A DNA stretch of 64,000 nucleotides from Chitinophaga pinensis (GCA_943369995.1 CALRPF020000013.1:36422-100421), one strand, 5' to 3'. Positions 2,684 through 20,699 are shown, numbered from the stretch's first letter. Notes: generated by a model not told the origin, from the letters alone. Made by a program: numbers and translations.

Positions 2684-4261
2684 ATGCATAAACATCAAAA
2701 AAAAATAGAATATCTTTTTGCTATCCTACTTTTCTTTTTTGGCTTGTATTATTATTGCTTCCGTATTTTAGGTTTTGATCTTTCTTACACCCCGGGTGAT
2801 TTTGGCGATTCGCGTTTTATTAACTATGTATTAGAACACGGATATAAATGGCTGCGCGGTATTGAGCCTGATTTTTGGCGTGCCAATTTTATGTATCCTT
2901 TAAAGGACAACATTGCCATCTCCGATTCTATGGCGGGCTCATTACCTATTTATGCTTTATTTCGTTTTATGGGCATTGATGTTGAACCTTCTTATCAATT
3001 GTGGTGGCTTAGTTGTTGTATTCTAAATTTCTGGTTTTGCTTTATTGCCTTTAAAAAAATTGGCTTTAGCCCATTTTTAAGTGCTATTGGAGCTTATGCG
3101 TTTGCCTTTGGCATAAACAATTTTAATCAATTTGTACACCTGCAATTCAACTGTAAATTTTTTGTGCCTATAGCCATCGCCTTATTTTATTCGTTTGTTA
3201 AAGATCCCAAACAAAAGTATTTTATTTTGCTACTGCTTACTACCGTTCTTCAATTTTATTGTAGTGCTTATATTGCCATATTTTTAATACTATTTATGAT
3301 CTTATTTGGTGCGTTGTATTTAGCATTTAAAGATAACAGGCAAGTTTTTTTTGCAGCTCTAAATAAAAAACTGATCATGCGATTGAGCATTGCAACGATT
3401 ATTAGTTTATTACTAATTATGCTACTCGCTTTACCCTACCATTCAATGGCCAGGATGATTGGTTACCAAAAATATGCAAATATAGTATCCTCCTTACCCA
3501 CCTTTTTCAGTTACTTTTTACCGGTTGATGGTTCAATTACATGGCAATTCTTGAGAGATACGCCGGCAAGAGAATATCCACTTTGGTATTTACATGAGCT
3601 TTTTGCCGGAGGTTTTTGTTATTTGGGTTTCTTGATTGCTTTTGTTCATATACTATATTCACTTATTAAAAAACAAAAAATAAATTTTTTAAGTGCACTT
3701 TTATGCATTGTTTGTTTTGTTTTTATTTTGATCTTCTCAAAAACAGAATCTCAACATTCCATCTTTAAAATTCTTCAATTCTTTCCGGGCTTTGGAAGTA
3801 TGCGACTTACATGCAGATTCATGATCATTACAAATTTTATAATGATTTGGTTAAGCTTATATTATTTTAATAAAGCAACTAAAGGAAAAGCCATTATTCT
3901 GTCAATTCTTTTAAGTTTATTGGTAATTGGCGATAATTTATTTGATGCTGAAAAAACACCTCGGAGCCTTACAAAAACAAGAATTGAAAGAACTGAAAAT
4001 ATGTGTGCCCTTATTAAAGAAAAAAATACAGCAAACAATAAAATAATTGCTGTACTTAATTTAAAAGATGACTTGGAATTTTTTCACCTGGATGTTATGC
4101 TCGCTACGCAAAAACTTAATTTATATACACTTAACGGCTATTCAAGTACTTGTTATGGAGAGTTATGCGGCGCTTACCACGATCCAAAACATATAAAACT
4201 CTCTAACTGGCTTAGGAGTTATTATATTAAAGAAAATAAGGTAACCTTTATTGAAAATTAA
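2684..4261 (+). CDS. Polytopic membrane protein, GT-C-fold glycosyltransferase-like (YfhO-like)
   Basis: N-terminal TM followed by an acidic loop (PGDFGDSRFINYVLEH...ISDSM), about 11-13 hydrophobic segments and a soluble C-terminal domain. Confidence 0.6.
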   Translation: MHKHQKKIEYLFAILLFFFGLYYYCFRILGFDLSYTPGDFGDSRFINYVLEHGYKWLRGIEPDFWRANFMYPLKDNIAISDSMAGSLPIYALFRFMGIDVEPSYQLWWLSCCILNFWFCFIAFKKIGFSPFLSAIGAYAFAFGINNFNQFVHLQFNCKFFVPIAIALFYSFVKDPKQKYFILLLLTTVLQFYCSAYIAIFLILFMILFGALYLAFKDNRQVFFAALNKKLIMRLSIATIISLLLIMLLALPYHSMARMIGYQKYANIVSSLPTFFSYFLPVDGSITWQFLRDTPAREYPLWYLHELFAGGFCYLGFLIAFVHILYSLIKKQKINFLSALLCIVCFVFILIFSKTESQHSIFKILQFFPGFGSMRLTCRFMIITNFIMIWLSLYYFNKATKGKAIILSILLSLLVIGDNLFDAEKTPRSLTKTRIERTENMCALIKEKNTANNKIIAVLNLKDDLEFFHLDVMLATQKLNLYTLNGYSSTCYGELCGAYHDPKHIKLSNWLRSYYIKENKVTFIEN

Positions 4262-4264
4262 AGC

Positions 4265-6205
4265 TCACTTAAGAAATTCAACTATCAATTCCTTGTCTTT
4301 ACGCCGTGTAGTATGAAACGTATTTTCGTTTGGAGAAATAACCAAATTTTCTTTAAACGGGGTTGTAATACGATATTTATTTTTACCGGCTTGTGTCAGA
4401 ATAAATTCTTCATAGATACTATAACTGTCTTTTTCAAAAACAATAATACCGCCAAACTCTTCTTTTGCAGTTGCTATTTTGCCGTTTAACGCGCTGAGTT
4501 GCGAGCGACCATCTTCAAAAGTTGTTATAATAATTTTACTTCCTTCATTACCATCAACCATTAATTTGCCCTCAGCTGAGATCCTGATAAACTTATTACC
4601 CTCTGTTTTCAGTATAACAGTATCAGAAGAAAGTGTCTTGGCTCTTGATGATGTGAATTTATAAATAGATGTATCCTTTAAAATATAATCGGGTAGTTGC
4701 CCGGTATTCAATATCGCAATCTTATAGTTTTTAACTTTCGCAAGGTTTATTTCAAATCTTGATGGAATTAAACTATAACCTATATAATCTGTATAGAACA
4801 TAAGTTTTATATAATCAAATTCAGGGCAATTAAAAACCACCAGTTGTTCGTTCTTAAATTCTTTTGTAAGTGCATTACAGGTATTGTACCAATTAATGTT
4901 TTGATTGCGTATAAATTGCATATAGCCGTCCGTCTTCTTCCATACGGTATGTTTTTCCTGAAAAGCTTCAAGTTTACAAAAATTAATACTACAATAAATC
5001 ACTAAAACAACAAAAAGCATTTGCTTTATTTTATTCTTTGCAATTTTTAAATACTCGTATATAATTTCGCCAATAGCCCCAAAGCCTAAAAAGAAAACAA
5101 AAAACACGAAGAAAGTAAAGCCGGGCATTTTTGTAGCTACATAGGTAAAAAATGCGTACACTATTACAACAGCAAACAAAAAGCAAATAAACAATTTTTT
5201 GTCACTAACATATTTATACAGTAAAATTAAACCAGGTATAATAAAAAAGTAAGCCAAATAACCTATTGTATTGGCAAGGCTCTCAAAATAGAAAAAAGCA
5301 TCACCACTATGTGCGTCTAAGGCAATATTAATATGTGCAACATTAAAAGCATGCTCCTGGGCAGCCTCTAATGGGAAACGACTAAATATGTAGATCTGCC
5401 AGGCAGCGGGAAGTATAAGCGCGACACAAAATGCTTTGAATAAATTAAACCAATCGCGCCGATAATTTTTAAAAGTATTTTTTTGCTGAATTAAAAACAT
5501 AAACCAAATTCCAAATACGATATAACCCGGCAGCCACTTTGTAAGAACAGCAAAGGAACTAAATAATGCAATAAGCAACATCCATTTTACCGATGCTCTT
5601 TCTTTTAGATATTCGCTATAAGCCCAAATACTCGCAACTATATAACACATAAAAATAATATCGTTATGATCGGTAGGCTGCGAGCCGACCATAAACTCAT
5701 TAAAAAAATAATTAAGGCTAAAAAACAATGCTCCTATAAAACCTATTCTTTTAGTAAATACATTATCTCCGATCTTATAAACGCAAAAAGTAGCAAACGT
5801 AAAACATATGGCACTTGGCAAACGAATTGCAAATGCCGTAGCGCCTAATAATTTAACAGAAAGCGCCATTTGCATTAAGAAAAACGGCTGCTTGTGCAAC
5901 CAAATATAATTCTTATCCCAATTTATATAATTATATGGCAAAATAGTATCGCGATATAGTTTGGGAGAAAACAGGTCGGCTGACATGTTTTTTGCTACGA
6001 GCGCATGGAATTGTTCATCCCAAAGATTGATAAATTCATCGGCAGTAATTACAAAAATTTTAAAACAAAGAGTACCTAGAAGTAAAAAAAAAAGTGCCAG
6101 TGATTTTTTACTATTGAACTCAAATATTAAAACAGAAGAAAAATAAAATAACAAAGAAACGACAATTAATATTTGCTGATAAGGTAAAAAATAACTGTCG
6201 AACAT
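4265..6205 (-). CDS. ArnT/PMT (GT39/GT83-like) glycosyltransferase with C-terminal beta-trefoil-like domain
   Basis: LWDEQFH acidic loop, HKQPFF, AIRLPSA, LTKW motifs; multiple TMs; fascin-like repeats in the last about 120 aa. Confidence 0.8.
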   Translation of the reverse strand: MFDSYFLPYQQILIVVSLLFYFSSVLIFEFNSKKSLALFFLLLGTLCFKIFVITADEFINLWDEQFHALVAKNMSADLFSPKLYRDTILPYNYINWDKNYIWLHKQPFFLMQMALSVKLLGATAFAIRLPSAICFTFATFCVYKIGDNVFTKRIGFIGALFFSLNYFFNEFMVGSQPTDHNDIIFMCYIVASIWAYSEYLKERASVKWMLLIALFSSFAVLTKWLPGYIVFGIWFMFLIQQKNTFKNYRRDWFNLFKAFCVALILPAAWQIYIFSRFPLEAAQEHAFNVAHINIALDAHSGDAFFYFESLANTIGYLAYFFIIPGLILLYKYVSDKKLFICFLFAVVIVYAFFTYVATKMPGFTFFVFFVFFLGFGAIGEIIYEYLKIAKNKIKQMLFVVLVIYCSINFCKLEAFQEKHTVWKKTDGYMQFIRNQNINWYNTCNALTKEFKNEQLVVFNCPEFDYIKLMFYTDYIGYSLIPSRFEINLAKVKNYKIAILNTGQLPDYILKDTSIYKFTSSRAKTLSSDTVILKTEGNKFIRISAEGKLMVDGNEGSKIIITTFEDGRSQLSALNGKIATAKEEFGGIIVFEKDSYSIYEEFILTQAGKNKYRITTPFKENLVISPNENTFHTTRRKDKELIVEFLK

Positions 6206-6232: not shown

Positions 6233-6889
6233 TTACACCTGCATTTCAGGTATATCGCCTTCTATAATTAACTTACCGGCGGTTGCATTTTTTATCTCAT
6301 CAATACTTATTCCAGGCGCACGTTCCAATAATTTGAATCCTCCTTGTGGAGCTATTTCATAAACACCTAACTCAGTAACTACTTTTTTTACGCATCTAAC
6401 GCCAGTTAAAGGCAATTCACATTTCGGTAAAAATTTTGATTGGCCTGCTTTATTTACCTGTTGCATGGCAACAATAATATTTTTTGCACTTGCTACAAGA
6501 TCCATTGCTCCGCCCATACCTTTAACCATTTTTCCGGGAATCTTCCAGTTAGCTATATCACCATTCTCGCTAACTTCCATCGCGCCAAGAATTGTAAGGT
6601 TTACTTTCTGCGAACGTATCATTCCAAAACTCATGGCACTATCAAAAATACTTGAGCCTTTAAGTAAGGTTATTGTTTGTTTACCTGCGTTAATAAGATC
6701 AGCGTTTTCTTCACCTTCATAGGGAAAAGGACCCATACCGAGAATACCATTTTCCGACTGAAGAACAACATTTACACCTTCAGGAATATAATTTGCAACC
6801 AAAGTAGGAATCCCAATTCCAAGATTTACAAACATACCATCCTTTACTTCCTTTGCTATTCTTTTGGCTATACCGTTTTTATCTAACAT
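6233..6889 (-). CDS. scoB: 3-oxoacid CoA-transferase subunit B
   Basis: VNLGIGIPT, LQSENG (catalytic Glu), NAGK, GMGGAMDL. Confidence 0.95.
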   Translation of the reverse strand: MLDKNGIAKRIAKEVKDGMFVNLGIGIPTLVANYIPEGVNVVLQSENGILGMGPFPYEGEENADLINAGKQTITLLKGSSIFDSAMSFGMIRSQKVNLTILGAMEVSENGDIANWKIPGKMVKGMGGAMDLVASAKNIIVAMQQVNKAGQSKFLPKCELPLTGVRCVKKVVTELGVYEIAPQGGFKLLERAPGISIDEIKNATAGKLIIEGDIPEMQV

Positions 6890-6890
6890 A

Positions 6891-7934
6891 TCAATATGCG
6901 TTTTTATATTCTTTTGAAAATTGTTTATTTAATGCTTTAGCTACGTTTTTTGCTATGATCATTCTTCCTTTATAACCATAATGTTCAGTTGTCCAGTTCT
7001 GATCGGTAAATTCTTTTCCATTAACCAACTCTAGATTATCAACAACAACACAATTGTTTTTAGTGTATCGTTTTATCAAATAATCTCTGTTTTGTTTCAT
7101 TAAAAATACTAATTCTTTGCCAACTAAACTATCTGCATATTCAATATTTTCGGCCATTAAATTTAAATACAAATTCACTTTATTTTTATTGCACCAATGG
7201 GCTATTTCGTCAAAATCCTTTATCCGCGGGTTATCCTCACGAATATTAAACGCATACCCTTTTATGTAGTGGCAAGCGAGCGTAATTTTTTCATGATCCC
7301 AGCTTCCATCAGCTTTTACGTAAGTACCTTGCGCCATACCATTATCCCATTCTCTTACGGTTTTATATTTAAACGGGAAAGGAAAAACAAGCGGTTTTGT
7401 TTCCCATTCTTTAAGCATTTCGGCTTCTCTTTGTTGCTCTGTTTTATTATCAAAGGCCTGTAAAGAAAGAAAGAAACGGTTAATTATATTTGGGTAGGGT
7501 TGTGCCAGAACTATAGATTCTTGTAATTGTGTTTCAAGGCGCGAATGTATCCAGGCAGCGTCAAACGAACGCATATTTAAAGTAACAATAATAGCCTTTG
7601 GCTTTTTTTCACTTACATCAATTTGCTTTACCCACTCTTTATAAATACCGGCATGCGTTGCAGGCTTATTGATGGTGGTTAAAGTAAGTGTTGGATAAAA
7701 GAACGCGGTAATTTCGGAAATAGTATTTTTAATTGAATCAGTTTCTCTTACGTTAAAGTTTGACGATTCTCCAAAATAAAAAATATCGGTCTCTTTTTGT
7801 TTTGCCCTTACCTCAACGATCTGTTCACATTTCTCATTAAGATCGCGTTTATATAAAGTAAAATTATAAATAAGATCCAGGCCAATAATTATTACTATCA
7901 GCATACATATCTTTATTATAATTTTTTTTGCCAT
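6891..7934 (-). CDS. DltD-like / SGNH-like membrane-anchored acyltransferase
   Basis: Start revised to the ATG at 7934 (TAATG overlap with the MBOAT stop); N-terminal anchor MAKKIIIKICMLIVIIIGL; block I-like YFGESS; C-terminal TTEHYGYKG resembles DltD DxxHLGxxG. Confidence 0.6.
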   Translation of the reverse strand: MAKKIIIKICMLIVIIIGLDLIYNFTLYKRDLNEKCEQIVEVRAKQKETDIFYFGESSNFNVRETDSIKNTISEITAFFYPTLTLTTINKPATHAGIYKEWVKQIDVSEKKPKAIIVTLNMRSFDAAWIHSRLETQLQESIVLAQPYPNIINRFFLSLQAFDNKTEQQREAEMLKEWETKPLVFPFPFKYKTVREWDNGMAQGTYVKADGSWDHEKITLACHYIKGYAFNIREDNPRIKDFDEIAHWCNKNKVNLYLNLMAENIEYADSLVGKELVFLMKQNRDYLIKRYTKNNCVVVDNLELVNGKEFTDQNWTTEHYGYKGRMIIAKNVAKALNKQFSKEYKNAY

Positions 7935-9340
7935 TAAAACTGAAAATAAATAAACGTAAATTTTTGAGTTCCTGATAAAGCCATTAAACAAAATAATAAT
8001 ACCGTATAAAAAGCCCACCTGTAAGGTGTTTTGAGGGTATTTAATTTAGAATCGAAACGCGAATTGTATAAAAAAATATCAAAAATTATAATTAAAACCG
8101 CAAATATTACTGGCATTAAAATATCAAGCTCAGCGAATTGCAAAGAATTATTCCTCAAAATAGCTTTGATCATATCCTTTGCTTTCTGAAAATTTTCGGC
8201 CCTGAAAAATATCCAGATAAACGACGTAATAACAAATGTTTTTAATACAAGAAGCGCATTTAGTAAACTCCATTCTTTTTTTATTTCGAATTTAAAGATC
8301 ATTGAAAAATAACGTTCCAATAAAAGCATTATGCCATGCAGCGCGCCCCAAACAACAAAGGTCCAGCTGGCACCATGCCATAGGCCGCTTACCATAAAAA
8401 CAATTAAAATATTAATACTCCACCTCGGAATTTTTACACGGTTACCTCCCAAAGGAATATATAAATAATCTCTAAACCAGGTGCTAAGCGAAATATGCCA
8501 TCTGCCCCAAAATTCAGATACACTTTTTGCCAGATAAGGCGTTTTAAAATTATTCATGATATTAATTCCCATTAACCTTGCGCAGCCTAAAGCAATGGTT
8601 GAATAGCCAAAAAAATCGGCATAAATCTGGAAAGAAAATAAAAAGACAGATAATAAAACTTCGTAAGAATTATATTTTAATGGCTCGGCGTAGATTTGGT
8701 TAACATACGGAGCAATGTTATCGGCCACGGCCATTTTTATAAATAAACCAAACAGGATCAATTTAAAACCATCCGAAAAATTTTGGTATAATGGTTTATG
8801 TGCTTCTTTCAATTCATTACCAAGCGTTTCGTAACGCTCAATGGGGCCAGCTACCATTTGCGGAAAGAACAGTACATAATTTGCAAAATACCCCAAATGC
8901 GTTTCGGCTTTCTGCCTGCCGCGGTATACTTCAATAGTATAGCTCATGGATTGAAATGTATGAAAAGAAAGTCCGATAGGCAAAATAATATTAAGGTTAA
9001 GCGGATGAAATTCTTTTCCGAACAAAGAAAATGCCGAAACCAGGTTTTCGTTGAAAAAATTAAAATATTTAAAAAAGGCCAATAGGCCAATATTTGCAGT
9101 TAAGCTGGCTACCAGGTAAAATAATTTTAGCCTACCCTCTACCCTTTCAATAGTTAGAGCCGCGATATAATCAACTACAATAATTAAAAAAAGTATAAGA
9201 ATATACTTCGGTACAAATACCATATAAAAATAACAGCTCGAAATAAAAATGAGCATCCACCTGAATTTTTGTGGCAATAAATAATATAACCCAATTACAA
9301 TTGGAAGAAAAAATAAAAAATGTAATGAATTAAATAACAT
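7934..9340 (-). CDS. MBOAT family O-acyltransferase (AlgI/DltB/PatA-like)
   Basis: MLFNS start, LPIGLSFHTFQSMSY, FFPQMVAGPIER, DFFGYS, FWGRWHISLSTWFRDYLYIPLGG, SGLWHGA (catalytic His). Confidence 0.95.
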   Translation of the reverse strand: MLFNSLHFLFFLPIVIGLYYLLPQKFRWMLIFISSCYFYMVFVPKYILILFLIIVVDYIAALTIERVEGRLKLFYLVASLTANIGLLAFFKYFNFFNENLVSAFSLFGKEFHPLNLNIILPIGLSFHTFQSMSYTIEVYRGRQKAETHLGYFANYVLFFPQMVAGPIERYETLGNELKEAHKPLYQNFSDGFKLILFGLFIKMAVADNIAPYVNQIYAEPLKYNSYEVLLSVFLFSFQIYADFFGYSTIALGCARLMGINIMNNFKTPYLAKSVSEFWGRWHISLSTWFRDYLYIPLGGNRVKIPRWSINILIVFMVSGLWHGASWTFVVWGALHGIMLLLERYFSMIFKFEIKKEWSLLNALLVLKTFVITSFIWIFFRAENFQKAKDMIKAILRNNSLQFAELDILMPVIFAVLIIIFDIFLYNSRFDSKLNTLKTPYRWAFYTVLLFCLMALSGTQKFTFIYFQF

Positions 9341-10975
9341 TTATTGCAACTCTTTACGTTTATATACTTCTACATGTTCTTTTTTAAGTAAAAAAGAAAA
9401 ATTATCTGTTATTACCTTAAAAGAAGCTTCGTTTTTTAAGGTAGGGTTATTTACAACAACATACTTAATATCCTTTTCTATAACACTTTTAACAAGAACA
9501 GAATCTGCAAATCGTTGTGCCGACAGAGTAAGTCCTTTTTGGTCCATTAAATAAAGTGTAATATCAAAGCTTTCGTCCGGCACGCTCAAAACCTTATCAT
9601 TTCTTGTAATACCAGCCTCTCTGAGATCTGGCGTAATGGTTTCGAGAGGTTTTGTTGAATTGCCGTAAGACCATCTTAAAAAGGCCGCGTAGTCTTTTTC
9701 TTCTTTAGACAAAAAAGGGTACCAACTACACATACTATCGTTTTTTATTGTTCTTAACCGAAAAAAAGCAGCAGAATAAAATGAATTAAAAATAACAACT
9801 ATAATTACGAAGGCTGTAAAGAATTTAGTGTTGCCAATTATTTGAAATTCATTATTAAAAACGATATGCGCAATACTTAAACAGGTAATAACGGGCAGTA
9901 TCATTAAATTATTTAAATAATAATCGTGAACGGTAAACACTTGAAAAAAGAACAATATATAAAATACAAAAAATAATGTAGCAAACACAAAAGAATATTT
10001 CAAAAAACTATTTAACTTTTTGAGATTAGCGTATACAAAAATAACCGCAGATAAAAACAAAAAGAACATTGGCTTATTTAAGAATACAGGGAAAAGAATA
10101 TTGAACAGCGACTGAAAATTAGAAAGAACAGCTTCTTCCTGCATTTCCCAAATAGGTAATACCGTTAAAAGAAAAACACCATTTGAACTGTCTCCATTAT
10201 AATAAACGGCATATTTATACCAGCAAATTATCAATAGTATTGACAGAATAATGAAAGATACCGGTAATATTTTTTTTGTGAATAATTTTTCGGTTTTAAA
10301 AAATGTGTTCAAATTAAAAAAATCAATTACCGAAAAAAATAATAGAAGCGCAAAAGGCATAACTGCGCTGGCCTTAATAAGAACAGCTAACATGGAAACA
10401 AATAAGCACCAATAAAAATATTTTAAGGAGCGCGTGTCATAAAAAGAATACAGAAAACAAAATCCAATTATGGCTAACGATAACGCGGGTACATCGGCAA
10501 TAAAGTTAAAACCATAATAAACAAGCATTGGCGATGTAAGAAAAAAGCTCACACAAAAGAATGAAAACAAAAGTGAGGCCCTGGTTCTTAAGAGTGAATT
10601 AAAAAGAAAGAACATGGCCAGTACAAACATAAAATATTCAAGCAGCTTATAAATAAATTCGTGTTCGCCAAAAATTGTCCACAAACAGGCAACGGTATAA
10701 TTCAGAATTGGAAATTCACTTACAGCACTTCCATCCTTATTTGCCTGGAAATGAATTTTTGGTTGAAAAAAATGCATTCCTTCTTCATAATAGTTCTTTG
10801 TAATAGATAAACAATCGCTTTGACGCCATTGATGTATTATTGAGGGCCTGTTTTTTAATGCCAGGTTATAGGCATTTACAAAAAACAAAAGTATAATAAA
10901 ACAAAGCAGAAATAAATTCGCGCTAAGTTTTGTTTTACCACTAAATATTTTTTTAAAAGAAATTTCTTTTGTCAT
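9341..10975 (-). CDS. ArnT-like GT-C-fold glycosyltransferase
   Basis: HQWRQSDCLS first-loop motif, EFPILNY, DVPALS, VLIK; about 12 TMs. Confidence 0.7.
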   Translation of the reverse strand: MTKEISFKKIFSGKTKLSANLFLLCFIILLFFVNAYNLALKNRPSIIHQWRQSDCLSITKNYYEEGMHFFQPKIHFQANKDGSAVSEFPILNYTVACLWTIFGEHEFIYKLLEYFMFVLAMFFLFNSLLRTRASLLFSFFCVSFFLTSPMLVYYGFNFIADVPALSLAIIGFCFLYSFYDTRSLKYFYWCLFVSMLAVLIKASAVMPFALLLFFSVIDFFNLNTFFKTEKLFTKKILPVSFIILSILLIICWYKYAVYYNGDSSNGVFLLTVLPIWEMQEEAVLSNFQSLFNILFPVFLNKPMFFLFLSAVIFVYANLKKLNSFLKYSFVFATLFFVFYILFFFQVFTVHDYYLNNLMILPVITCLSIAHIVFNNEFQIIGNTKFFTAFVIIVVIFNSFYSAAFFRLRTIKNDSMCSWYPFLSKEEKDYAAFLRWSYGNSTKPLETITPDLREAGITRNDKVLSVPDESFDITLYLMDQKGLTLSAQRFADSVLVKSVIEKDIKYVVVNNPTLKNEASFKVITDNFSFLLKKEHVEVYKRKELQ

Positions 10976-11045
10976 TTTTAATATTCAGTTGTACCAATTG
11001 GGATATAAATTTTTATTGATTGAAATTAGAAGAGATCAAACTATT

Positions 11046-11756
11046 TTATTTCTTTCTCACTGTTCTTTGTTCGATGCGTTTTTCGTATTTCTGTCCCTGA
11101 AAGATCCGGTGAACATAAATACCTGGTGTGTGAATGTGGTCAGGATCTAATTCGCCTGCAGGCACAAGCTCTTCTACTTCAGCAATTGTAATTCTGCCGG
11201 CCATTGCCATTAAAGGATTAAAATTACGGGCAGTGCTGTTATAAATTAAATTTCCGGCCGTATCGCCTTTCCATGCTTTTACAATAGCAAAGTCAGCTTC
11301 AAAAGCTTTCTCCATTAAATATTCTTTTTCTTCACCATTAAAAGTAAACTTACGTGTTTCTTTTCCAATGGCCACTTCGGTGCCAACCCCAGCCGGCGTA
11401 AAAATAACAGGCATACCATAACCGGCAGCCATACATCTTGTAGCAAGTGTGCCTTGAGGTACTAATTCAACCTCTAACTCACCGCTTAACATCTGGCGTT
11501 CGAATTCATCATTCTCTCCAACGTAACTTGAGATCATTTTTTTGATCTGTTTTGTTTGAAGCAATAAGCCTAAACCAAAATCATCTACACCGGCATTATT
11601 ACTAATACAGGTTAAATTCTTAACACCTTTTTTTACCAATTCCGCAATACAGTTCTCAGGAATGCCACATAAGCCAAAACCACCCACCATTAAGGTATTG
11701 CCATCTTTAATATCTTTTAATGCTTCTTCAACATTTTTTACTACTCGATTAATCAT
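11046..11756 (-). CDS. scoA: 3-oxoacid CoA-transferase subunit A
   Basis: [44 protein letters not shown]. Confidence 0.95.
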
Positions 11757-13389
11757 TTTTTTGGCGTTTTTTACGTTCGTTTACAAATATAGAAATTTTA
11801 TCTTTTGTGTAAGGTAAATAGCGCTGAAATTCATACTCCCTTACCAGTTTAAAGTCCTTTGGTTTGTCGTATTGAATAACGTAATCATAAGCGTAAAGAT
11901 CAAGAAAATAATACCATATGCTTCTGTTTCCTTCGTGCCACCCGTTTACCTCCATTCCACCATTGATCTTATGGTATTCTACACCAACTTTATCCTTCAA
12001 AAAGGCATAAGCTTCCCAACGCTTTCTATTTAATTCAAGATAATCTTTTGTGCCAAATACAGAAATATAAACAAACAGTAAAAGCGGCAAAATGGCAAGC
12101 CGGTAATTTGTTTTATAGTTTAGATTTGCATAAGCAAATACTATTAAAGCAAGCGTTATTAAAGGGATATGATACCTGTCGTAATAACTTTCGGTTATAA
12201 GTATCATAAAAATATAGGCTAAAAATAAAGTTGCAATAAAAATTACTTTAGGGTTTTTATTGAACGGATTGATTCTTTGCTTTATCAGTTTAAACACAAA
12301 TAAAACAAAACAAATAAGAGATCCTGAAGTGAATAAATACTTTATTACAACACCTATTTTATCTGCAGTTTCTGAATAATTATGCTCATGTTCGCCTTTG
12401 TAATCCCTGTTCATATCCTGAACAAAAGTTTCTGCTCCAATAAAAAGATTTGAAAAAGTATTTCCTATCGGAAAACGCTCTTCTCTTAAAATAAAATATA
12501 TTGCTGCTGAACAAATTAACGTTGTTAAAACAATTACATATCCTTTAAACTCTTTTAAAAGGCCGGATATATATATAACTGCAAAAGGAAACAAATAAAG
12601 TAAAACATGAAGAATGATAGTTGAAGATCTTGTTTTTAAATTCAGGAAAAGTCTGTCGAAAAATATAGATGGCGATAAATGGTCTCCAGAAAATTTGTAA
12701 GCAGAATCAGGAAGAAGAATGCCTTTAAGATAATGCTCATAATACTTAAATACCACAATTATGATAGCAAAGAATGCAATGGACAAGCCAACGTACAACC
12801 ATCTTTTTTGATCTAAAAACAAACAGCAGAACGTAAAACATGCCGGCACAATAATACCGTATTGCCTTAGCAAAACAATAAGCATTGACAGGATAAATAC
12901 GGCAATAAAGGATAAATAACTTCGTGACCTAAAAAATTCGAAAGCAAAATAACAACTTACAATAATGAGTGTATTGAAGTTGACATCTGTCATGAAAGTA
13001 TTGCATAGCCCAAAATAAATCGGGTTAAAAAGAAATACCAGACAAAGAATAAAAGCGGTAAGTCTATTGTTTGTAATATCTATTACAATTTTATTTAATG
13101 TAAGAACAGATATTAAAGCAGATATAAGTGTAGAGAAGCGAAGAACAGTAAAAGAAAAACCAAAGATTTTGGTAAACAATGCACCCCATATAATTTGCGT
13201 GTACAAGGTCATTGCAGGAAAATCGCCTATATTAATAATATTATCTTTTTGATAAATTAATACAGATTTTCCATACGTCCAGTCGTCATTTAAAGGAAAG
13301 TTACCGATGGGATTGACTATAATTTCACTAATGATGAAGATCATCATTAAAATTACGATCAGTTTATTTTTTTCAACAAAAGATTTCAT
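11749..13389 (-). CDS. GT-C-fold glycosyltransferase-like membrane protein (paralogue of 15765-17387)
   Basis: FPLNDDW acidic loop, MTDV, RQYG; many TMs; stop overlaps the scoA start by 8 nt. Confidence 0.7.
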
Positions 13390-13414: not shown

Positions 13415-15673
13415 TTATTGATCCATATTGTCAAATTCGTTTATTTCTTCAGAACCATCATTATCTGAGGCATCGTATTTGCTACAATCCAATTCAAGAT
13501 TCGGATCTAAATTTTTCGGTCGTGGAAACTCTCCTTTACTAACCTTTAATTTTGGATCAGCATACACTTTGCTAAAGAATTTTCCCCAAATGGGCAAAGC
13601 CATTGTTGCACCCTGACCTTCAACCATCGAATTAAAATGTATACTTCTGTCTTCGCCGCCAACCCATGCGCCGGCAACCAACTCAGGCGTTAAGCCAATA
13701 AACCAGCCATCGGCATTTTTTTGCGTGGTACCCGTTTTTCCGGCTATCTGATTCATTAATTTATGTCTTGATCTTAAGCGCGAGCCGGTTCCTCCATCAA
13801 CTACACCACGCATTAATTGTATCATGGTGTACGCTTTTTCTTCACTAAAAACCTCATCAGTAGTTGGAATAAATTCTTCAAGCACTTTTCCGTTCTTATC
13901 TTCAATACGTGTAACAAAGGTGGGTTGAATATATGTTCCTTTATTTGCAAATGTTGAATTAGCTCCCACCATTTCAAATACGCTTATATCTGCTGTGCCT
14001 AAACAAATTGAGTGCACCTCGGGTATTTCTGATGTAACACCCAAGCGTTTTACCAATGTAACAAGAGCATGCGGCGTATATTGCTTCATAACCCAGGCCG
14101 TTATGTAGTTGATAGAATTTGCCAGAGCTTTTTTAAGAGTTAGCATTTTACCATTGTTCTTATCATTTGGCCCGTCTGAATTACTCGGACACCACTCTTT
14201 TCCATCGGGCAATGTAATACACGTTCTAACGTTTGGTACCTGGTGGCATGGCGAGTACCCTTCCTGTATTGCCAGAGCATAAACAAAGGGTTTAAAGGTT
14301 GAACCTACCTGGCGCTTACTAACTTTTACGTGATCGTATTTAAAATGTTTGTGGTTGATGCCACCCACCCAGGCTTTAACATAACCGGTTTGAGGTTCCA
14401 TGGCCATAAAGCCAGTTTGTAAAAACCCTTTATAGTATTTTATACTATCAAAAGGTGTCATCACAGTATCAATATCGCCGCGTAAACTATAAACAGACAT
14501 TTCTACAGGCTTGTAAAAAGTAGCGATGGCCTCTTGATCGCTCATACCAGATTTTTTCGCAGAACGAAAACGATCGCTGCGTTTGATAGAAGCGTTCATA
14601 ATATTATCTATTTCCTGCTTGTTTACATTCCAGGCAAAGGGTGCGTTCTTTTTTGTTTTCAGATCTTTATCAAAAACCTTTTGAAGTTCATGCATATGTT
14701 CAAATACAGCCTCTTCAGCATACTTTTGCATACGTGAATCGATGGTGGTATATACTCTTAAACCGTCTTTATAAACGTTGTAAGGTTTATTTGTTTCGGG
14801 ATTGATATGTTTTTCGCACCACAACTTTAAAAAATTATCGCGCAGATACTCTCTTAAGTAAGGCGCTAATCCATCATTATGATCTTCAGGATGAAAACTA
14901 AGATCTAAAGGTAATACTTTTAAACTATCGTATTTTTGCTGTGCCAGGTAACCATATTTTACCATTTGGCTTAAGACCACATTACGCCTTTGCTTTGTTT
15001 TTTCGGGAAAACGAATAGGATTAAACAACGAAGGATTTTTTGCCATACCAACAAGCATGGCCGCTTGTTCGATATTTAAACTATCCTGCGAACGATTAAA
15101 ATAAATTTGCGATGCGGATTTTACGCCAACCGCTAAATTTAAGAAATCAAATTTGTTTAAATAAAGCGCTAAAATCTCATCTTTGGTATAGTATTTTTCA
15201 AGACGTGTGGCAATGATCCACTCTTTCATTTTGCGAATGGCCAATTCAACCTTACTTAATTTTTCGCGGGGAAACATCATTTTAGCTAGTTGCTGCGTAA
15301 CAGTACTTCCGCCACCTCTGCTACCACCTGTAAAAGCTCCGGCAAAAGCGCGGCCCAATGCCTTTATATCTACACCGCTATGCTCATAAAACCTCGCATC
15401 TTCAGTTGCAATTAAAGCTTCTACGAGATCTTTATCTAATTGATTAAAATTTACATTTACACGGTTTTCGCTATAGTATTTTCCAAGGATCTTCATATCA
15501 CCACTATAAACAATAGTGGCAAGGTTGTTTTTTGGATTTACAAGCTCTTCCACATCCGGTAAAGCTCCAAAAATACCCATACCGGTAAGCGTTACAATTG
15601 TAAAAAGAAGAAGAAACGGGCTGAGGAAAAGTATCCAAAGCCATTTGACATATTTATTTGATTTTTGTGCCAT
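13415..15673 (-). CDS. mrcA: Class A penicillin-binding protein 1A (transglycosylase + transpeptidase)
   Basis: EDARFYEH, GGSTVTQQLAK, RKMKEW, YLN; transpeptidase STFK, SIN, KTGT; start moved to the ATG at 15673 (MAQKSNK). Confidence 0.93.
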   Translation of the reverse strand: MAQKSNKYVKWLWILFLSPFLLLFTIVTLTGMGIFGALPDVEELVNPKNNLATIVYSGDMKILGKYYSENRVNVNFNQLDKDLVEALIATEDARFYEHSGVDIKALGRAFAGAFTGGSRGGGSTVTQQLAKMMFPREKLSKVELAIRKMKEWIIATRLEKYYTKDEILALYLNKFDFLNLAVGVKSASQIYFNRSQDSLNIEQAAMLVGMAKNPSLFNPIRFPEKTKQRRNVVLSQMVKYGYLAQQKYDSLKVLPLDLSFHPEDHNDGLAPYLREYLRDNFLKLWCEKHINPETNKPYNVYKDGLRVYTTIDSRMQKYAEEAVFEHMHELQKVFDKDLKTKKNAPFAWNVNKQEIDNIMNASIKRSDRFRSAKKSGMSDQEAIATFYKPVEMSVYSLRGDIDTVMTPFDSIKYYKGFLQTGFMAMEPQTGYVKAWVGGINHKHFKYDHVKVSKRQVGSTFKPFVYALAIQEGYSPCHQVPNVRTCITLPDGKEWCPSNSDGPNDKNNGKMLTLKKALANSINYITAWVMKQYTPHALVTLVKRLGVTSEIPEVHSICLGTADISVFEMVGANSTFANKGTYIQPTFVTRIEDKNGKVLEEFIPTTDEVFSEEKAYTMIQLMRGVVDGGTGSRLRSRHKLMNQIAGKTGTTQKNADGWFIGLTPELVAGAWVGGEDRSIHFNSMVEGQGATMALPIWGKFFSKVYADPKLKVSKGEFPRPKNLDPNLELDCSKYDASDNDGSEEINEFDNMDQ

Positions 15674-15764
15674 TTTGAAAGGGTAAAAATAACAAAAACC
15701 CTTAATGTAAAAAGTGAAATAAACTAAAAATAGTAACAATATTGCGCCTTAACGAGAAGCAACA

Positions 15765-17387
15765 CTAATTACTGGCTGTTTTTGCAGTATCTACCCTCAT
15801 AAGCAGCCTTAAAGTATCTTTTTTATATGGAAAATAGCGCTGGAATTCATATTCACGAAGCGTTTTAAAACCACTCTCTTTATTAAACTGGATAAGGTAA
15901 TCGTAGTTTTGAAGATTGCCGTAATCTGCCCACCAATTATTTTTTCCATCGTTCCAGCAATTCACCTCAAAGCCACCATTAATTTTCTCCGCATTAACTT
16001 TCGCTTTGTCCTTAATAAAATAATAAGCGTCCCATCTGTTTCGATTAAGGGCAAGATAATCCTTTGTTCCGAAAACCGATAAATAAAAAAAACAGAACAA
16101 GATCACTATGCTTATACTATAACTGGCTTTAAAAGTTTTATTCATAAACGAAAATAAAATAAAGATTAAAGCAATTATTGGTAAATGATACCTATCAAAA
16201 TACACATCTTTTTGTGTAATAAGTATCATAAAAATATACATACCCAATAACAAAACTAAAAATAAAGCCACTGGATCTAATTTAAATGCTTTTTTACCTG
16301 ATTTAATTTTGGACGATAAAAAAAGTATAAGTACAATAAAAGTGAACGACGAAAAAACATATTTTATAATATCGCAAAGTGCCGCAAAATCAGTGGATCT
16401 TGTATGGCCATTACTTTCGTGAAATGTTTCAGGCCCGATACACATGTTTGTAAACATATTATGAAAAGGGAAGATGTTACCCTGCAACAAAAAATAACAA
16501 CCAAAAATACATACTATAGAAACCCCAAAAGCATAAATTTTATTGACTGACCTGATAATTGAAGCGAGATAAATAATTGCTAAAGGAAAACCATATATAA
16601 GAATGTGTACTAAAATTACTTTGTACCGCCCGGCTATATTTACAAAAAAATTCTCCCAAAAAGCGTAACTCAAAAGATCAATTGATCCTGAAAAAGTATA
16701 AGCTGCACCATAGGATAAAGAATGCTTAAGAATACTTTCATAACATTTCAATACTCCAAGAGTTATTACAATAACTATAAACGAGATAATTAAATATCTT
16801 TTCTTTTTTTCTTTTAAAGCAATACAAGAGAGGAAAAAACAAATTGGTAAAACAATTCCAAACTGACGAATTAATACAAGACCAATAGATAATAATAAAA
16901 AATAATATATATATATTTCTTTTTTTGTGTCAAAAAAAACAAAAGCACAATAACAACTTAAGATTAACAGTGTAGTGAAATTTACATCTGTCATATATGT
17001 ATTTGTAAGGCTAAAGTACAATGGATTAAACAATAACACTAAACATGAAAAAAAGCCAAGCCCCGGATTATTGCTGATCTTAACAACAAGTTTATTTAGA
17101 AAAAACAGGCCAATGAGCGATGAAATAAGCGTAGAAAATCTTAAGACGGTAAATGAGAAACCGAAGATCTTTGTAAAAATTGTTCCCCACAATAAATGAG
17201 TAAAAAGCGTCATGGCTCCAAAATCACCGATCGTATAAACACCATTGATGGCAAATGATACCGATTTTGAATAAGCCCAATCATCATTTAAAGGAAATTC
17301 GCCAATTGGATTTACGATAATTTCACAAATAATGAATATTAAAATCAGAAATAAAAAATGTTTATGTTTTATTGCAAAAGATCTCAT
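15765..17387 (-). CDS. GT-C-fold glycosyltransferase-like membrane protein (paralogue of 11749-13389)
   Basis: FPLNDDW, MTDV, RQFG; shares the identical 19-aa block [19 protein letters not shown] with its paralogue. Confidence 0.7.
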   Translation of the reverse strand: MRSFAIKHKHFLFLILIFIICEIIVNPIGEFPLNDDWAYSKSVSFAINGVYTIGDFGAMTLFTHLLWGTIFTKIFGFSFTVLRFSTLISSLIGLFFLNKLVVKISNNPGLGFFSCLVLLFNPLYFSLTNTYMTDVNFTTLLILSCYCAFVFFDTKKEIYIYYFLLLSIGLVLIRQFGIVLPICFFLSCIALKEKKKRYLIISFIVIVITLGVLKCYESILKHSLSYGAAYTFSGSIDLLSYAFWENFFVNIAGRYKVILVHILIYGFPLAIIYLASIIRSVNKIYAFGVSIVCIFGCYFLLQGNIFPFHNMFTNMCIGPETFHESNGHTRSTDFAALCDIIKYVFSSFTFIVLILFLSSKIKSGKKAFKLDPVALFLVLLLGMYIFMILITQKDVYFDRYHLPIIALIFILFSFMNKTFKASYSISIVILFCFFYLSVFGTKDYLALNRNRWDAYYFIKDKAKVNAEKINGGFEVNCWNDGKNNWWADYGNLQNYDYLIQFNKESGFKTLREYEFQRYFPYKKDTLRLLMRVDTAKTASN

Positions 17388-17501: not shown

Positions 17502-18809
17502 CTACCTTAAAATTAGAAGGCGATTAGCGTCTAGCTTTATAAAAATAAATAGAAGAATAGTGAATGACCAAAGTGATGAACCTCCGTAACTAAAGAAAGG
17601 TAAAGGAATGCCAATAACGGGCATTAAACCAATGGTCATACCAATATTCACTGCAAGGTGAAAAAATAATACACAAGCTACTCCATAACCGTATATCCTG
17701 CTAAAATCAGAACGTTGCCTTTCTGATAAAAATATAAGCCGGAGTATTAAAAATAGTTCTAAAAAAATAACCACCGTGCTGCCAACAAAACCCCACTCCT
17801 CGCCTACTGTACAAAAAATAAAATCAGTATCCTGTTCCGGCACAAAATCGTATTTGGTTTGCGTACCCTGCAAATAACCTTTACCAAAAAAGCCACCGCT
17901 ACCAATAGCGATCTTTGCCTGATTTACATTATATCCTTCTTTTTTAAGATCTACCGTTCCTCGTCCTAACAATACATCTATCCTTACTTTTTGATGCTCT
18001 TCTAAATGATTGTAAACATAATTTGTTCCAAGTACAACTCCTGCGGCAAGCACGTAAGCTACAATAACTCCAATTAAATTTGCCCTGCTGCGTTTAATGA
18101 ATAAAAAAGCCGATGATGCAATTACGGCGAGCGTTATTAGCAAGCCACTAATGCTTGTTACAATTAATGCTACTACAAATAAAATTGCCGCTAAAATTCC
18201 AAAAATTAAAAATCCTACACTTAAACCTTCGCGATACAAAACAATAATAAATGCTATAAACACAATGGCAAGCCCCGTTTCATTCTGCAATTTGATAATT
18301 AAAATTAACGGCACGATAATAAATAATAAAGCAATAAATGTGTTCTTGTAATTTTTTATTAGATCCTTTAAACGCAACCGAAATTGTTGGTTAACAACAA
18401 TATTCTGGTTACTTAAAAATTTTGCGAGCGCCAAACTGGTTGCAAATTTCATGAACTCGGCAGGCTGTATACCTGCACTACCAAATCTAAACCACGAGTG
18501 ACTACCTTTTATTTCTTTTCCTAAGAATAAAACCAAAATATTCATTAAAAGAAAAAAGCCATAAAAACCATAAGCAAAAGCAGTATAAAAATTGGCGTCT
18601 ATTAATAAGATACTAAACGCAATAACTGCGGCACCACCTATCCAGATAAGCTGTTTACCATACTTTTGCGTTGTATCAAAAATATTCTGATGCTCTTCAT
18701 CATAAACTGCAGCATAAATATTTAACCAACCCATAAAAACGAGCAGCACGTAGGTAATAAGCGTTAGCCTGTCTACCCCATAAAATATACTATTTTCGTT
18801 TCTTGCCAA
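17502..18809 (-). CDS. rodA: Rod shape-determining protein RodA (SEDS)
   Basis: QPAEFMK, GYNVNQAKIAIGSGG, PEQDTDFIF, GIPLPFFSYGGSS; TTG start. Confidence 0.95.
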   Translation of the reverse strand: MARNENSIFYGVDRLTLITYVLLVFMGWLNIYAAVYDEEHQNIFDTTQKYGKQLIWIGGAAVIAFSILLIDANFYTAFAYGFYGFFLLMNILVLFLGKEIKGSHSWFRFGSAGIQPAEFMKFATSLALAKFLSNQNIVVNQQFRLRLKDLIKNYKNTFIALLFIIVPLILIIKLQNETGLAIVFIAFIIVLYREGLSVGFLIFGILAAILFVVALIVTSISGLLITLAVIASSAFLFIKRSRANLIGVIVAYVLAAGVVLGTNYVYNHLEEHQKVRIDVLLGRGTVDLKKEGYNVNQAKIAIGSGGFFGKGYLQGTQTKYDFVPEQDTDFIFCTVGEEWGFVGSTVVIFLELFLILRLIFLSERQRSDFSRIYGYGVACVLFFHLAVNIGMTIGLMPVIGIPLPFFSYGGSSLWSFTILLFIFIKLDANRLLILR

Positions 18810-18812
18810 TTA

Positions 18813-20699
18813 TTAATTTTTTATAGGTCGTTTGATTTTTGCAGCGTCTTTTTTATTATTCTTTGTTATCAGATCACCCTCTAACATTCTTTTTTCAGTT
18901 TCAGGTCTTTCTGTTTTGCCTTTTAAATACTTTTCGATCATTAAAGTAACAATGGGTGCACTCCAGGTATTACCAAAACCGGCATTTTCAACAATACAGG
19001 CAATAGCAATTTTTGGATTATCGCGGGGCGCAAATGCCAAAAAAACAGCGTGATCATCGCCATGAGGATTTTGTGCAGTACCTGTTTTACCGCACACTAC
19101 TATATCTTTTAAACGGTTTGTAAACGCTGTGCCACCGGGCTCTAAGGCGCCCTGCATACCATCAATAACGTTTAAATAAGCGGTTTGGTCTTGTACACCT
19201 ACGTAATGCTTTTGTTTAAAGCGTTTGTCTAATTGTTTATCTATACCAACACCTTTTACGCTGTGAGGTGTGTAATAAAAGCCCCTGTTAGCAATGCTGG
19301 CCACTACATTCGCCATTTGTAGGGGCACCAGCGTTAACTCGGCCTGGCCAATACCTAATGAAACAATTGTATTACTGCGCCAACCGTTCTTTCCAAAAAC
19401 TTTATTATAATATTCAACCGATGGAACGTTGCCGGGTTTATCGTAAGGAAGGTCGGTTCCCAAACGTGTTCCGGGACCAAATGTTTTTACCATTTCACGC
19501 CAATGATTATAACCATCAATAAAATTAGGGTACTTCCGCTGATCTACAATTTCTCTGAAAACATATGCATAATAAGAATTGCAAGATGCTGCCACCGAAC
19601 CAGGTAAATTTTTTCCGCCTCCATGCGCGTGGCATTTTGGTTTACCGCCCATAGGCGGATACCCCATGGCGCAAGGATAAACAGTATTACGATTAATTAA
19701 ACCATCCTGTTGCGCTATTAAAGCATCTATTAACTTAAAGATAGAGCCCGGGGGATACATGGCTGTGAGTGCACGATTAAACAAAGGACGGTTGATACTA
19801 TCGTAATATAGTTTTGTGAAATTTTTAGAACGTTCTTTACCACCAACCAGTAAGTTTGGATCATATGCAGGTCCTGAAACCAAGCATAAGATCTCTCCTG
19901 TAGATGGTTCAATTGCAACAATGGCGCCTTTTTTTCCAGTCATTAATTTTTCGCCATACTCCTGCAAATCACGATCAATACTGCAATACAAAGGTTTACC
20001 CGCAATTGCCAATGTATCATACTTTCCATCCATGTAACGGCCAATTACTTTGTTGTGCACATCTGTAATAGCTATTTGTGTTCCTTTTTTTCCTCGCAAC
20101 GCTTCTTCGTAACTTCTTTCAAGGCCTGTGATACCAATGTAATCACCTTCTTTATAATAGAGATCTTTTTCGGCCTGCTCTTTACTTACCTCACCAACAT
20201 ACCCTAAAAGATGTGCTGCAATTGGCTTTGGGTATTTTCTTACAGTACGTTTCTGAACAAAAAAACCTTTAAAGCGATATGCTTTTTCCTGCAAGGCAGC
20301 GTAAGTTTGCGCCGACATTTGTTTTTCGAAAATACTTTCTTTACGCGGAGAATTGGGCGCCTGGCAAGCGCGTTTCATGCGTTTTAAATATTCTTGCCTG
20401 GTAATTTGTAACACTTCGCAAACACCCATCGTATCACAACCTTTAGTTTCGCGTGGAATGACCATAAGATCATAAGAAGGCGCGTTAAACACTAATAATT
20501 TTCCTTTGCGGTCGTAAATATATCCGCGCACCGGATATTCAGTCATGTAACGAAATGCATTCTTTTCCGCATCTAGTTTATACTGAATATCTATTACCTG
20601 AATGTAGAACAGGCGGCATAAATAAATTATAACCACCAGGCAAAAAAATCCACCTATAATCAATTTTCTATTGCCGAGTTGTTGCGAATTAATACTCAT
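18813..20699 (-). CDS. mrdA: Penicillin-binding protein 2
   Basis: RGYIYDR, RKYP, GITGLE, YPPGSIFK, SCN, GKTGTAQ. Confidence 0.95.
   Translation of the reverse strand: MSINSQQLGNRKLIIGGFFCLVVIIYLCRLFYIQVIDIQYKLDAEKNAFRYMTEYPVRGYIYDRKGKLLVFNAPSYDLMVIPRETKGCDTMGVCEVLQITRQEYLKRMKRACQAPNSPRKESIFEKQMSAQTYAALQEKAYRFKGFFVQKRTVRKYPKPIAAHLLGYVGEVSKEQAEKDLYYKEGDYIGITGLERSYEEALRGKKGTQIAITDVHNKVIGRYMDGKYDTLAIAGKPLYCSIDRDLQEYGEKLMTGKKGAIVAIEPSTGEILCLVSGPAYDPNLLVGGKERSKNFTKLYYDSINRPLFNRALTAMYPPGSIFKLIDALIAQQDGLINRNTVYPCAMGYPPMGGKPKCHAHGGGKNLPGSVAASCNSYYAYVFREIVDQRKYPNFIDGYNHWREMVKTFGPGTRLGTDLPYDKPGNVPSVEYYNKVFGKNGWRSNTIVSLGIGQAELTLVPLQMANVVASIANRGFYYTPHSVKGVGIDKQLDKRFKQKHYVGVQDQTAYLNVIDGMQGALEPGGTAFTNRLKDIVVCGKTGTAQNPHGDDHAVFLAFAPRDNPKIAIACIVENAGFGNTWSAPIVTLMIEKYLKGKTERPETEKRMLEGDLITKNNKKDAAKIKRPIKN

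Follow-up and report, generated by a model that had tools for sequence, protein, structure and literature searches.

In a 64,000-nucleotide (nt) stretch of Chitinophaga pinensis DNA (GCA_943369995.1, CALRPF020000013.1:36422-100421; hereafter the window), scoA and scoB, which encode the two subunits of a 3-oxoacid CoA-transferase, are separated by genes for a GT-C-fold glycosyltransferase, an MBOAT acyltransferase and a DltD-like protein (positions 6,233-11,756). A preliminary description of this DNA proposed that ScoAB makes a short acyl-CoA (e.g. acetoacetyl-CoA) and that the MBOAT/DltD-like pair moves its acyl group to a sugar that the GT-C enzyme has installed, so that the split operon would reflect an envelope acylation pathway fed by the CoA-transferase; a neutral insertion was named as the alternative. 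Comparison with hundreds of related genomes supports the alternative better. The MBOAT and DltD-like genes form an autonomous cassette, and it is probable (roughly 0.72) that it is an O-acylation cassette that entered an insertion-prone scoAB junction in a single, tolerated insertion and hitch-hikes on the operon there. Hitch-hiking at a permissive junction, whether neutral or regulatory, is the favoured explanation of the arrangement. The features of the locus are as follows, with protein lengths in amino acids (aa) and folds taken from AlphaFold2 (AF2) models:

11046-11756, minus strand: scoA, 3-oxoacid CoA-transferase subunit A, 236 aa (PF01144, 244.7 bits; TIGR02429, 261 bits)
10976-11045, minus strand: A/T-rich spacer of 70 nt between scoA and the inner GT-C gene
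9341-10975, minus strand: inner GT-C-fold glycosyltransferase, a variable accessory gene, 544 aa (PMT_2, 18.5 bits, and fold)
7934-9340, minus strand: MBOAT acyltransferase of the AlgI/PatA/DltB type, 468 aa (PF03062, 88.5 bits)
6891-7934, minus strand: predicted membrane-anchored periplasmic DltD-fold (SGNH-like) protein, partner of the MBOAT protein, 347 aa (AF2 fold)
6233-6889, minus strand: scoB, 3-oxoacid CoA-transferase subunit B, 218 aa (PF01144, 152 bits; TIGR02428, 310 bits)

The genes of this region are all encoded on the minus strand, in the order scoA, spacer, GT-C, MBOAT, DltD-like, scoB. The gap of about 4.2 kb reported between scoA and scoB was borne out (4156 nt from the scoA stop to the scoB start), as were four tight junctions: the inner GT-C gene runs directly into MBOAT (0 nt from stop to start), the MBOAT and DltD-like genes overlap by 1 nt through the shared A of TAATG, a single nucleotide, read directly, lies between the DltD-like stop and the scoB ATG, and scoA overlaps the upstream GT-C gene (11749-13389) by 8 nt. 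One junction is missing from the preliminary description, the 70-nt spacer that follows scoA; it is the only junction of the run that is not tight, and it leaves scoA and the inner GT-C gene uncoupled; a sigma-70 promoter and terminator scan showed no terminator-like site within it. The spacing of the remaining junctions suggests that the genes may be translationally coupled. Given these tight junctions, the cassette and scoB are probably read off one transcript, and such co-transcription would amount to operon hitch-hiking and not to substrate channelling.

Linkage of the cassette to scoAB

The arrangement is not unique to this genome. A gene-neighbourhood search recovered scoA, zero to two variable GT-C genes, MBOAT, DltD-like and scoB, in this order, in about 40 species-level genomes of an Aurantibacillus-like clade, with uniformly tight junctions (1-3 nt from the DltD-like gene to scoB in 31/32 loci). 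In a tree of the MBOAT protein and its partner, all scoAB-embedded cassettes fall into one clade (SH-aLRT 99), and in a tree of PBP1a and ScoA the basal positions are taken by two genomes, G231 and G202, that have scoA and scoB together, immediately next to each other in G231 and about 0.5 kb apart in G202. Taken together, the two trees point to a single capture of the cassette at the scoA-scoB junction, in the clade's ancestor. The history of the locus probably began with a single co-directional insertion of a self-contained two-gene O-acylation cassette, followed by vertical inheritance, the variable GT-C genes being gained and lost beside the cassette afterwards.

The linkage between scoAB and the cassette broke at least four times within the clade and is dispensable. 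The cassette is gone from G008 and G013, two genomes nested within the clade, whose scoA and scoB have rejoined with an 11-nt gap. G041 and G043 retain scoA-MBOAT-DltD-like but carry scoB on another contig, G003 lacks the type-1 cassette and has scoB 72 kb away, and in G042 the cassette lies elsewhere and scoA and scoB are adjacent.

The surroundings of the separated scoB were recorded in two of these genomes. In G041 (G041:C4:34000-48000), a 4HBT thioesterase gene and a polyprenyl synthetase gene lie just upstream of scoB and the next gene after it encodes a PMT_2 GT-C protein (487 aa), and in G003 (G003:C1:995000-1011000) scoB is followed by three unannotated open reading frames (ORFs) of 488-523 aa.

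Beyond the clade, the cassette is often found without scoAB. Among 80 related loci in public genomes, 43 hold an MBOAT-DltD-like pair (41-50% identity) whose flanks, covered up to 10 kb on each side, contain neither scoA nor scoB. These 43 loci span Bacteroidales, Flavobacteriales, Salibacteraceae, Brumimicrobium, Lentimicrobiaceae, Prolixibacteraceae and others, and unlinked loci share no other conserved neighbour and no carrier or ligase gene (48 loci). A CoA_trans gene is missing altogether from 8 of 25 cassette-bearing outgroup genomes, and scoAB is present in 68% of such genomes compared with 82% in a class-wide sample. The genome of the window itself carries a second cassette (G000:C2:71240-73632; L031:9522-11932, minus strand) with 39-43% identity to the first, which stands alone, far from scoAB, between T9SS-CTD cargo genes and a gene for a PD40/TPR protein.

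The CoA-transferase looks ordinary by sequence. ScoA and ScoB score above the cut-offs of TIGR02429 (261 bits, cut-off 128.5) and TIGR02428 (310 bits, cut-off 243.6), which are models of subfamily and not equivalog level, and the genome (4.89 Mb, 100% complete) has no CoA_trans gene besides these two. The catalytic SENG motif is found at ScoB residue 45 and is kept in 36/36 Bacteroidia orthologues. ScoA exhibits 85-100% identity within the clade and about 77% identity to other Bacteroidia families. ScoA/ScoB are 77% identical to other families, which are 76% identical among themselves, and therefore give no sign of a new function; no accelerated or lineage-specific divergence was seen in this identity comparison across Bacteroidia families. 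A neofunctionalised ScoAB was accordingly rejected as a candidate, given a divergence equal to that between other families and an invariant SENG. The window's scoAB is the genome's single, ordinary family-I 3-oxoacid CoA-transferase. It resembles ScoAB, AtoDA and PcaIJ in the subfamily scores, the SENG motif and the identity to Bacteroidia orthologues, and differs from them in that its two genes are 4.2 kb apart and not adjacent, a state that is common in Bacteroidia.

These observations bear directly on the proposal that ScoAB feeds an acyl-CoA to the MBOAT/DltD-like pair. In favour of such a pathway, about 40 species share the gene order, with the genes co-directional and closely spaced, and with DltA and DltC missing a CoA thioester is the likely donor. 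However, all of this conservation derives from one event, and the subsequent uncouplings include a clean loss of the cassette that left scoAB intact. The preliminary description had itself named orthologues without scoAB as evidence against the pathway, and these occur at more than half of the related loci, in some genomes without any CoA-transferase, and a second time in the window's own genome; the ordinary divergence of ScoA and ScoB also argues against it.

The scoA-scoB junction across Bacteroidia

Among 48 loci sampled across the class (about 46 families, about one locus per family, L127-L173 included), the scoA-scoB pair is interrupted or pulled apart in about 20. The two genes are adjacent in 25 loci; a small ORF for a four-helix 23S rRNA intervening-sequence protein lies between them in four, inserts of 1.2-9.5 kb do so in eight, scoB is more than 10.9 kb away in another eight, and three loci are cut by contig ends. 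The inserts comprise GT-C genes, an Acyl_transf_3 (AT3) gene, a gene for a T9SS-CTD protein, an opposite-strand ABC exporter and a gene for a beta-lactamase-like protein, and in three genomes beyond the sample the junction holds a gene for a 604-aa protein with no Pfam match together with an opposite-strand GT2 gene. The small ORF, of 116-133 aa, fills a scoA-scoB gap of 425-455 nt in four unrelated families (L128, L132, L147 and L160). The copy in L128 (L128:4740-5141, 133 aa), the one that was scanned, matches PF05635, the 23S rRNA intervening-sequence protein, a four-helix bundle; the other three lie at oriented coordinates of about 4700-5140.

In Bacteroidia, the scoA-scoB junction is an insertion hot spot at which, and beside which, foreign genes have landed repeatedly. 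Unrelated genes split scoA from scoB in many other families, which argues against a dedicated pathway as the cause of the split in the window. The other inserts (intervening-sequence protein, GT-C, GT2, AT3 and ABC exporter) resemble the window's insert in occupying the same junction, in leaving scoA and scoB intact and in being mostly co-directional and tightly spaced. They differ in that they are confined to one or a few species, whereas the MBOAT/DltD-fold and GT-C insert of the window is fixed across a clade of genus-to-family level.

One insert in the sample also encodes a membrane acyltransferase. In G085, an AT3 gene (L149:4700-5854) lies between scoA and scoB and is followed by GT-C-like genes. 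It was considered as a second, independent link between acyltransferases and scoAB and was rejected, as the site is empty of AT3 in four congeners and the gene is a sporadic insertion.

Several observations nevertheless weigh against a purely tolerated insertion. About 40 species have retained the arrangement and its junctions are very tight, as selection for co-expression would also give; one unrelated genome has a membrane acyltransferase gene of a different kind, AT3, at the same junction; 18/48 loci carry PBP1a immediately upstream of scoA; and GT-C-like genes are enriched beside or between scoA and scoB (9/115 versus 3/422 ORFs, Fisher p = 9e-5, a value uncorrected for shared ancestry). 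In combination, they allow for an unrecognised connection of the CoA-transferase with envelope modification.

The pathway fed by ScoAB can draw on the AT3 case and on the GT-C enrichment, but the AT3 insert occurs in one species only, the other genes found at the junction are unrelated to acylation and, outside the clade, the cassette is not linked to GT-C genes. Set beside one capture, at least four breaks and an unlinked second cassette, the pathway is left with very little probability. A broader form of the idea would make ScoAB in Bacteroidia the source of a short acyl-CoA other than acetyl-CoA (e.g. acetoacetyl, 3-hydroxybutyryl or succinyl) for membrane acyltransferases in general, MBOAT in the clade and AT3 in G085, for the decoration of glycans built by GT-C enzymes, with the class-wide PBP1a-scoA-scoB-GT-C synteny as its trace; this, taken as a whole, is considered to have very little probability. 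A single tolerated insertion of an autonomous cassette remains the preferred reading.

Identity and predicted function of the cassette

The MBOAT protein scores above the PF03062 cut-off (88.5 bits, cut-off 27), and its best PDB match is DltB (6bug, E = 3e-29). Both conserved MBOAT histidines are kept, one in RWHISLS (His289-type) and one in GLWH322G, aligned with DltB His336. The DltD-like protein matches no Pfam or NCBIfam family at E <= 0.01, and in a profile search no PDB sequence scored under E 0.39. Its AF2 model, built on a 26-sequence alignment (pLDDT 94), has an N-terminal helix at residues 2-26, and its top ten Foldseek matches in the PDB are all DltD structures (7dxm/3bma/6o93/6pfx; E = 1.2e-6 to 2.7e-5; TM 0.39-0.47), followed by GDSL/SGNH esterases. 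Judged from predicted structures, the labels DltD-like and GT-C hold at the level of fold.

In the same alignment, whose 26 sequences share 41-78% identity with the window's protein, E56-S57-S58, N120, R122 and T316-E317-H318 are invariant. The family carries T-E-H (TTEH in the C-terminal motif) in place of the DxxH of SGNH proteins, Thr replacing the usual Asp at His-3, with Glu317 adjacent to the His and a nearly invariant Asp311 seven residues ahead of it. The family comprises at least 882 sequences, has no Pfam or NCBIfam model, and carries only the name 'hypothetical protein' in its sources. MBOAT lies directly upstream of the DltD-like gene in 77/80 related loci, the other three being explained by a contig end or by an MBOAT match under the coverage filter, and the gap between the two genes is -1 to 3 nt in 32/33 loci.

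The preliminary description noted that DltA and DltC are missing from the window, and a genome-wide search extends this absence to the whole genome: the best match to TIGR01734 (dltA) reaches 53 bits against a cut-off of 560, and TIGR01688 (dltC) has no match at E <= 0.01. This is relevant to the possibility that the cassette is a remnant of Dlt-type D-alanylation that uses a carrier protein encoded elsewhere. As in the Dlt pathway of Firmicutes, the MBOAT protein is closest in sequence to DltB, with His336 conserved, and the best fold matches of its partner are DltD. However, the host is a diderm member of Bacteroidota without dltA or dltC, the MBOAT protein scores 165 bits against TIGR04091 (dltB), far under the equivalog cut-off of 375, the partner has no match to DltD at the level of the sequence family and its C-terminal motif departs from DxxH, and no conserved carrier or ligase gene lies beside the cassette in 48 loci. 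A Dlt remnant is scarcely credible on this evidence.

Close parallels are found in the carrier-less relays of diderm bacteria, in which an MBOAT protein works with a periplasmic SGNH-like transferase: PatA/PatB in peptidoglycan O-acetylation, AlgI/AlgJ/AlgX in the acetylation of alginate and WssH/WssI in that of cellulose. The window's cassette shares with these systems adjacent, overlapping MBOAT and SGNH-like genes, both histidines, a single N-terminal helix that anchors the partner, the lack of an adenylating enzyme and of a carrier protein, and a place in an envelope-synthesis neighbourhood. The window's partner differs in that it matches no Pfam model, the AlgX/AlgJ type included, and its nearest solved folds are DltD and not AlgJ, AlgX or PatB. 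The fold matches, the two histidines and the absence of DltA and DltC support the two-step relay of an MBOAT and an extracytoplasmic SGNH/DltD-fold protein recognised in the preliminary description, and by analogy the cassette is best read as a carrier-less MBOAT-to-SGNH O-acylation relay. A literature search found no report on the MBOAT/DltD-fold cassette or on its linkage to scoAB.

The absence of DltA and DltC also suggests the donor, which is probably acetyl-CoA. The MBOAT protein would draw the acyl group, probably acetyl, off a CoA thioester on the cytoplasmic side and carry it over the inner membrane, where the anchored periplasmic DltD-fold protein would hand it to an envelope glycan. 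The candidate nucleophile of the DltD-fold protein lies in the invariant GESS motif and may act with the invariant His318, and the acceptor in the clade may be a glycan made by the neighbouring GT-C enzymes.

GT-C genes and the wider gene neighbourhood

The inner GT-C gene is not a stable part of the locus. It is found in about half of the clade and is missing from the rest, and 12 related loci have a direct scoA-to-MBOAT junction of 3-34 nt (3-10 nt in 11/12) instead of the spacer. Its protein scores 18.5 bits against PMT_2 (E = 0.0025), under the cut-off of 26.1, and its AF2 model (pLDDT 71, pTM 0.74) finds its best PDB matches in ArnT (5ezm/5f15), ALG12, STT3, AftD, ALG9 and Pmt4, all of GT-C fold, at E = 2e-5 to 2e-4. 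The GT-C genes upstream (11749-13389) and downstream (4265-6205) of the locus likewise vary in presence among relatives. Outside the clade, a GT-C-like gene occurs within 7-9 kb of the cassette in 5/48 loci and is adjacent to it in none, and the cassette as a general GT-C partner was rejected on this count. The genes flanking the locus are as follows:

4265-6205, minus strand: downstream GT-C gene, PMT_2/ArnT-like, 27 nt past scoB, 646 aa (PMT_2, 60.4 bits, above the cut-off)
11749-13389, minus strand: upstream GT-C-like gene, 546 aa (PMT_2, 24.2 bits, just under the cut-off)
13415-15739, minus strand: PBP1a, class A penicillin-binding protein (Transgly, 185 bits; Transpeptidase, 85 bits)
15765-17387, minus strand: GT-C gene between rodA and PBP1a, 540 aa (PMT_2, 34.7 bits, above the cut-off)
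17502-18809, minus strand: rodA
18813-20699, minus strand: PBP2

The genes form a co-directional run that reads, from 5' to 3', mreB, mreC, mreD, PBP2, rodA, GT-C, PBP1a, GT-C and scoA, and continues on the same strand with GT-C, MBOAT, DltD-like, scoB and the GT-C gene at 4265-6205. The two GT-C genes on either side of PBP1a (11749-13389 and 15765-17387) are paralogous (phmmer E = 1e-147), and five of the roughly 20 GT-C-like genes of the genome are concentrated in this 15-kb stretch. On the plus strand, positions 2684-4261 encode a 525-aa polytopic protein without a Pfam or NCBIfam match, which clusters with the GT-C genes when a profile search is iterated and is conserved beside purQ in close relatives.

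The run raises the possibility that the coupling is regulatory and not one of substrate, so that the cassette and the GT-C genes would be kept in the PBP1a-scoAB unit by selection for co-expression of envelope modification with cell-wall synthesis and the metabolic enzyme, e.g. in response to growth phase or carbon source, the position being adaptive and ScoAB giving no substrate. The length of the run, from mreB to the GT-C gene after scoB, is consistent with this, as are a number of terminators not above chance (7 found, 9.3 expected), the tight junctions, the frequent adjacency of PBP1a and scoA, and the GT-C clusters that, by an iterated profile search, accompany scoAB at a distance of up to 11 kb in 12-13 of the 48 loci of the class sample. 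Against it, the content of flanking and inner GT-C genes differs from species to species, the cassette has been lost or moved several times, and promoter motifs are at chance level in the scans, both for sigma-70 (61 versus 62.5 expected) and for the Bacteroidota -7 motif TAnnTTTG (112 versus 114.6 expected). Maintenance by selection for co-expression is considered unlikely on balance, and the insertion of a self-contained cassette, tolerated at a permissive junction, is preferred.

The class-wide PBP1a-scoAB-GT-C neighbourhood has no obvious functional reason. Its simplest reading is that of an old neighbourhood that continually receives accessory envelope genes by shuffling.

For the window's clade, the genomes provide a 'before, after and reverted' series in which the operon of a two-subunit enzyme tolerates several kilobases of foreign membrane-protein genes. 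A model in which ScoAB feeds the cassette would, if true, constitute a new way to supply acyl donors to envelope acyltransferases, but the comparative evidence argues against it. The scoA-scoB junction as a recurrent site for accessory, often envelope, genes is a caution for inference from gene neighbourhoods. The modestly novel part, and the one worth following up, is the uncharacterised, Bacteroidota-wide MBOAT/DltD-fold cassette: DltD-fold partners of MBOAT proteins form a widespread family in diderm Bacteroidota without DltA and DltC, and the family marks an uncharacterised envelope O-acylation.

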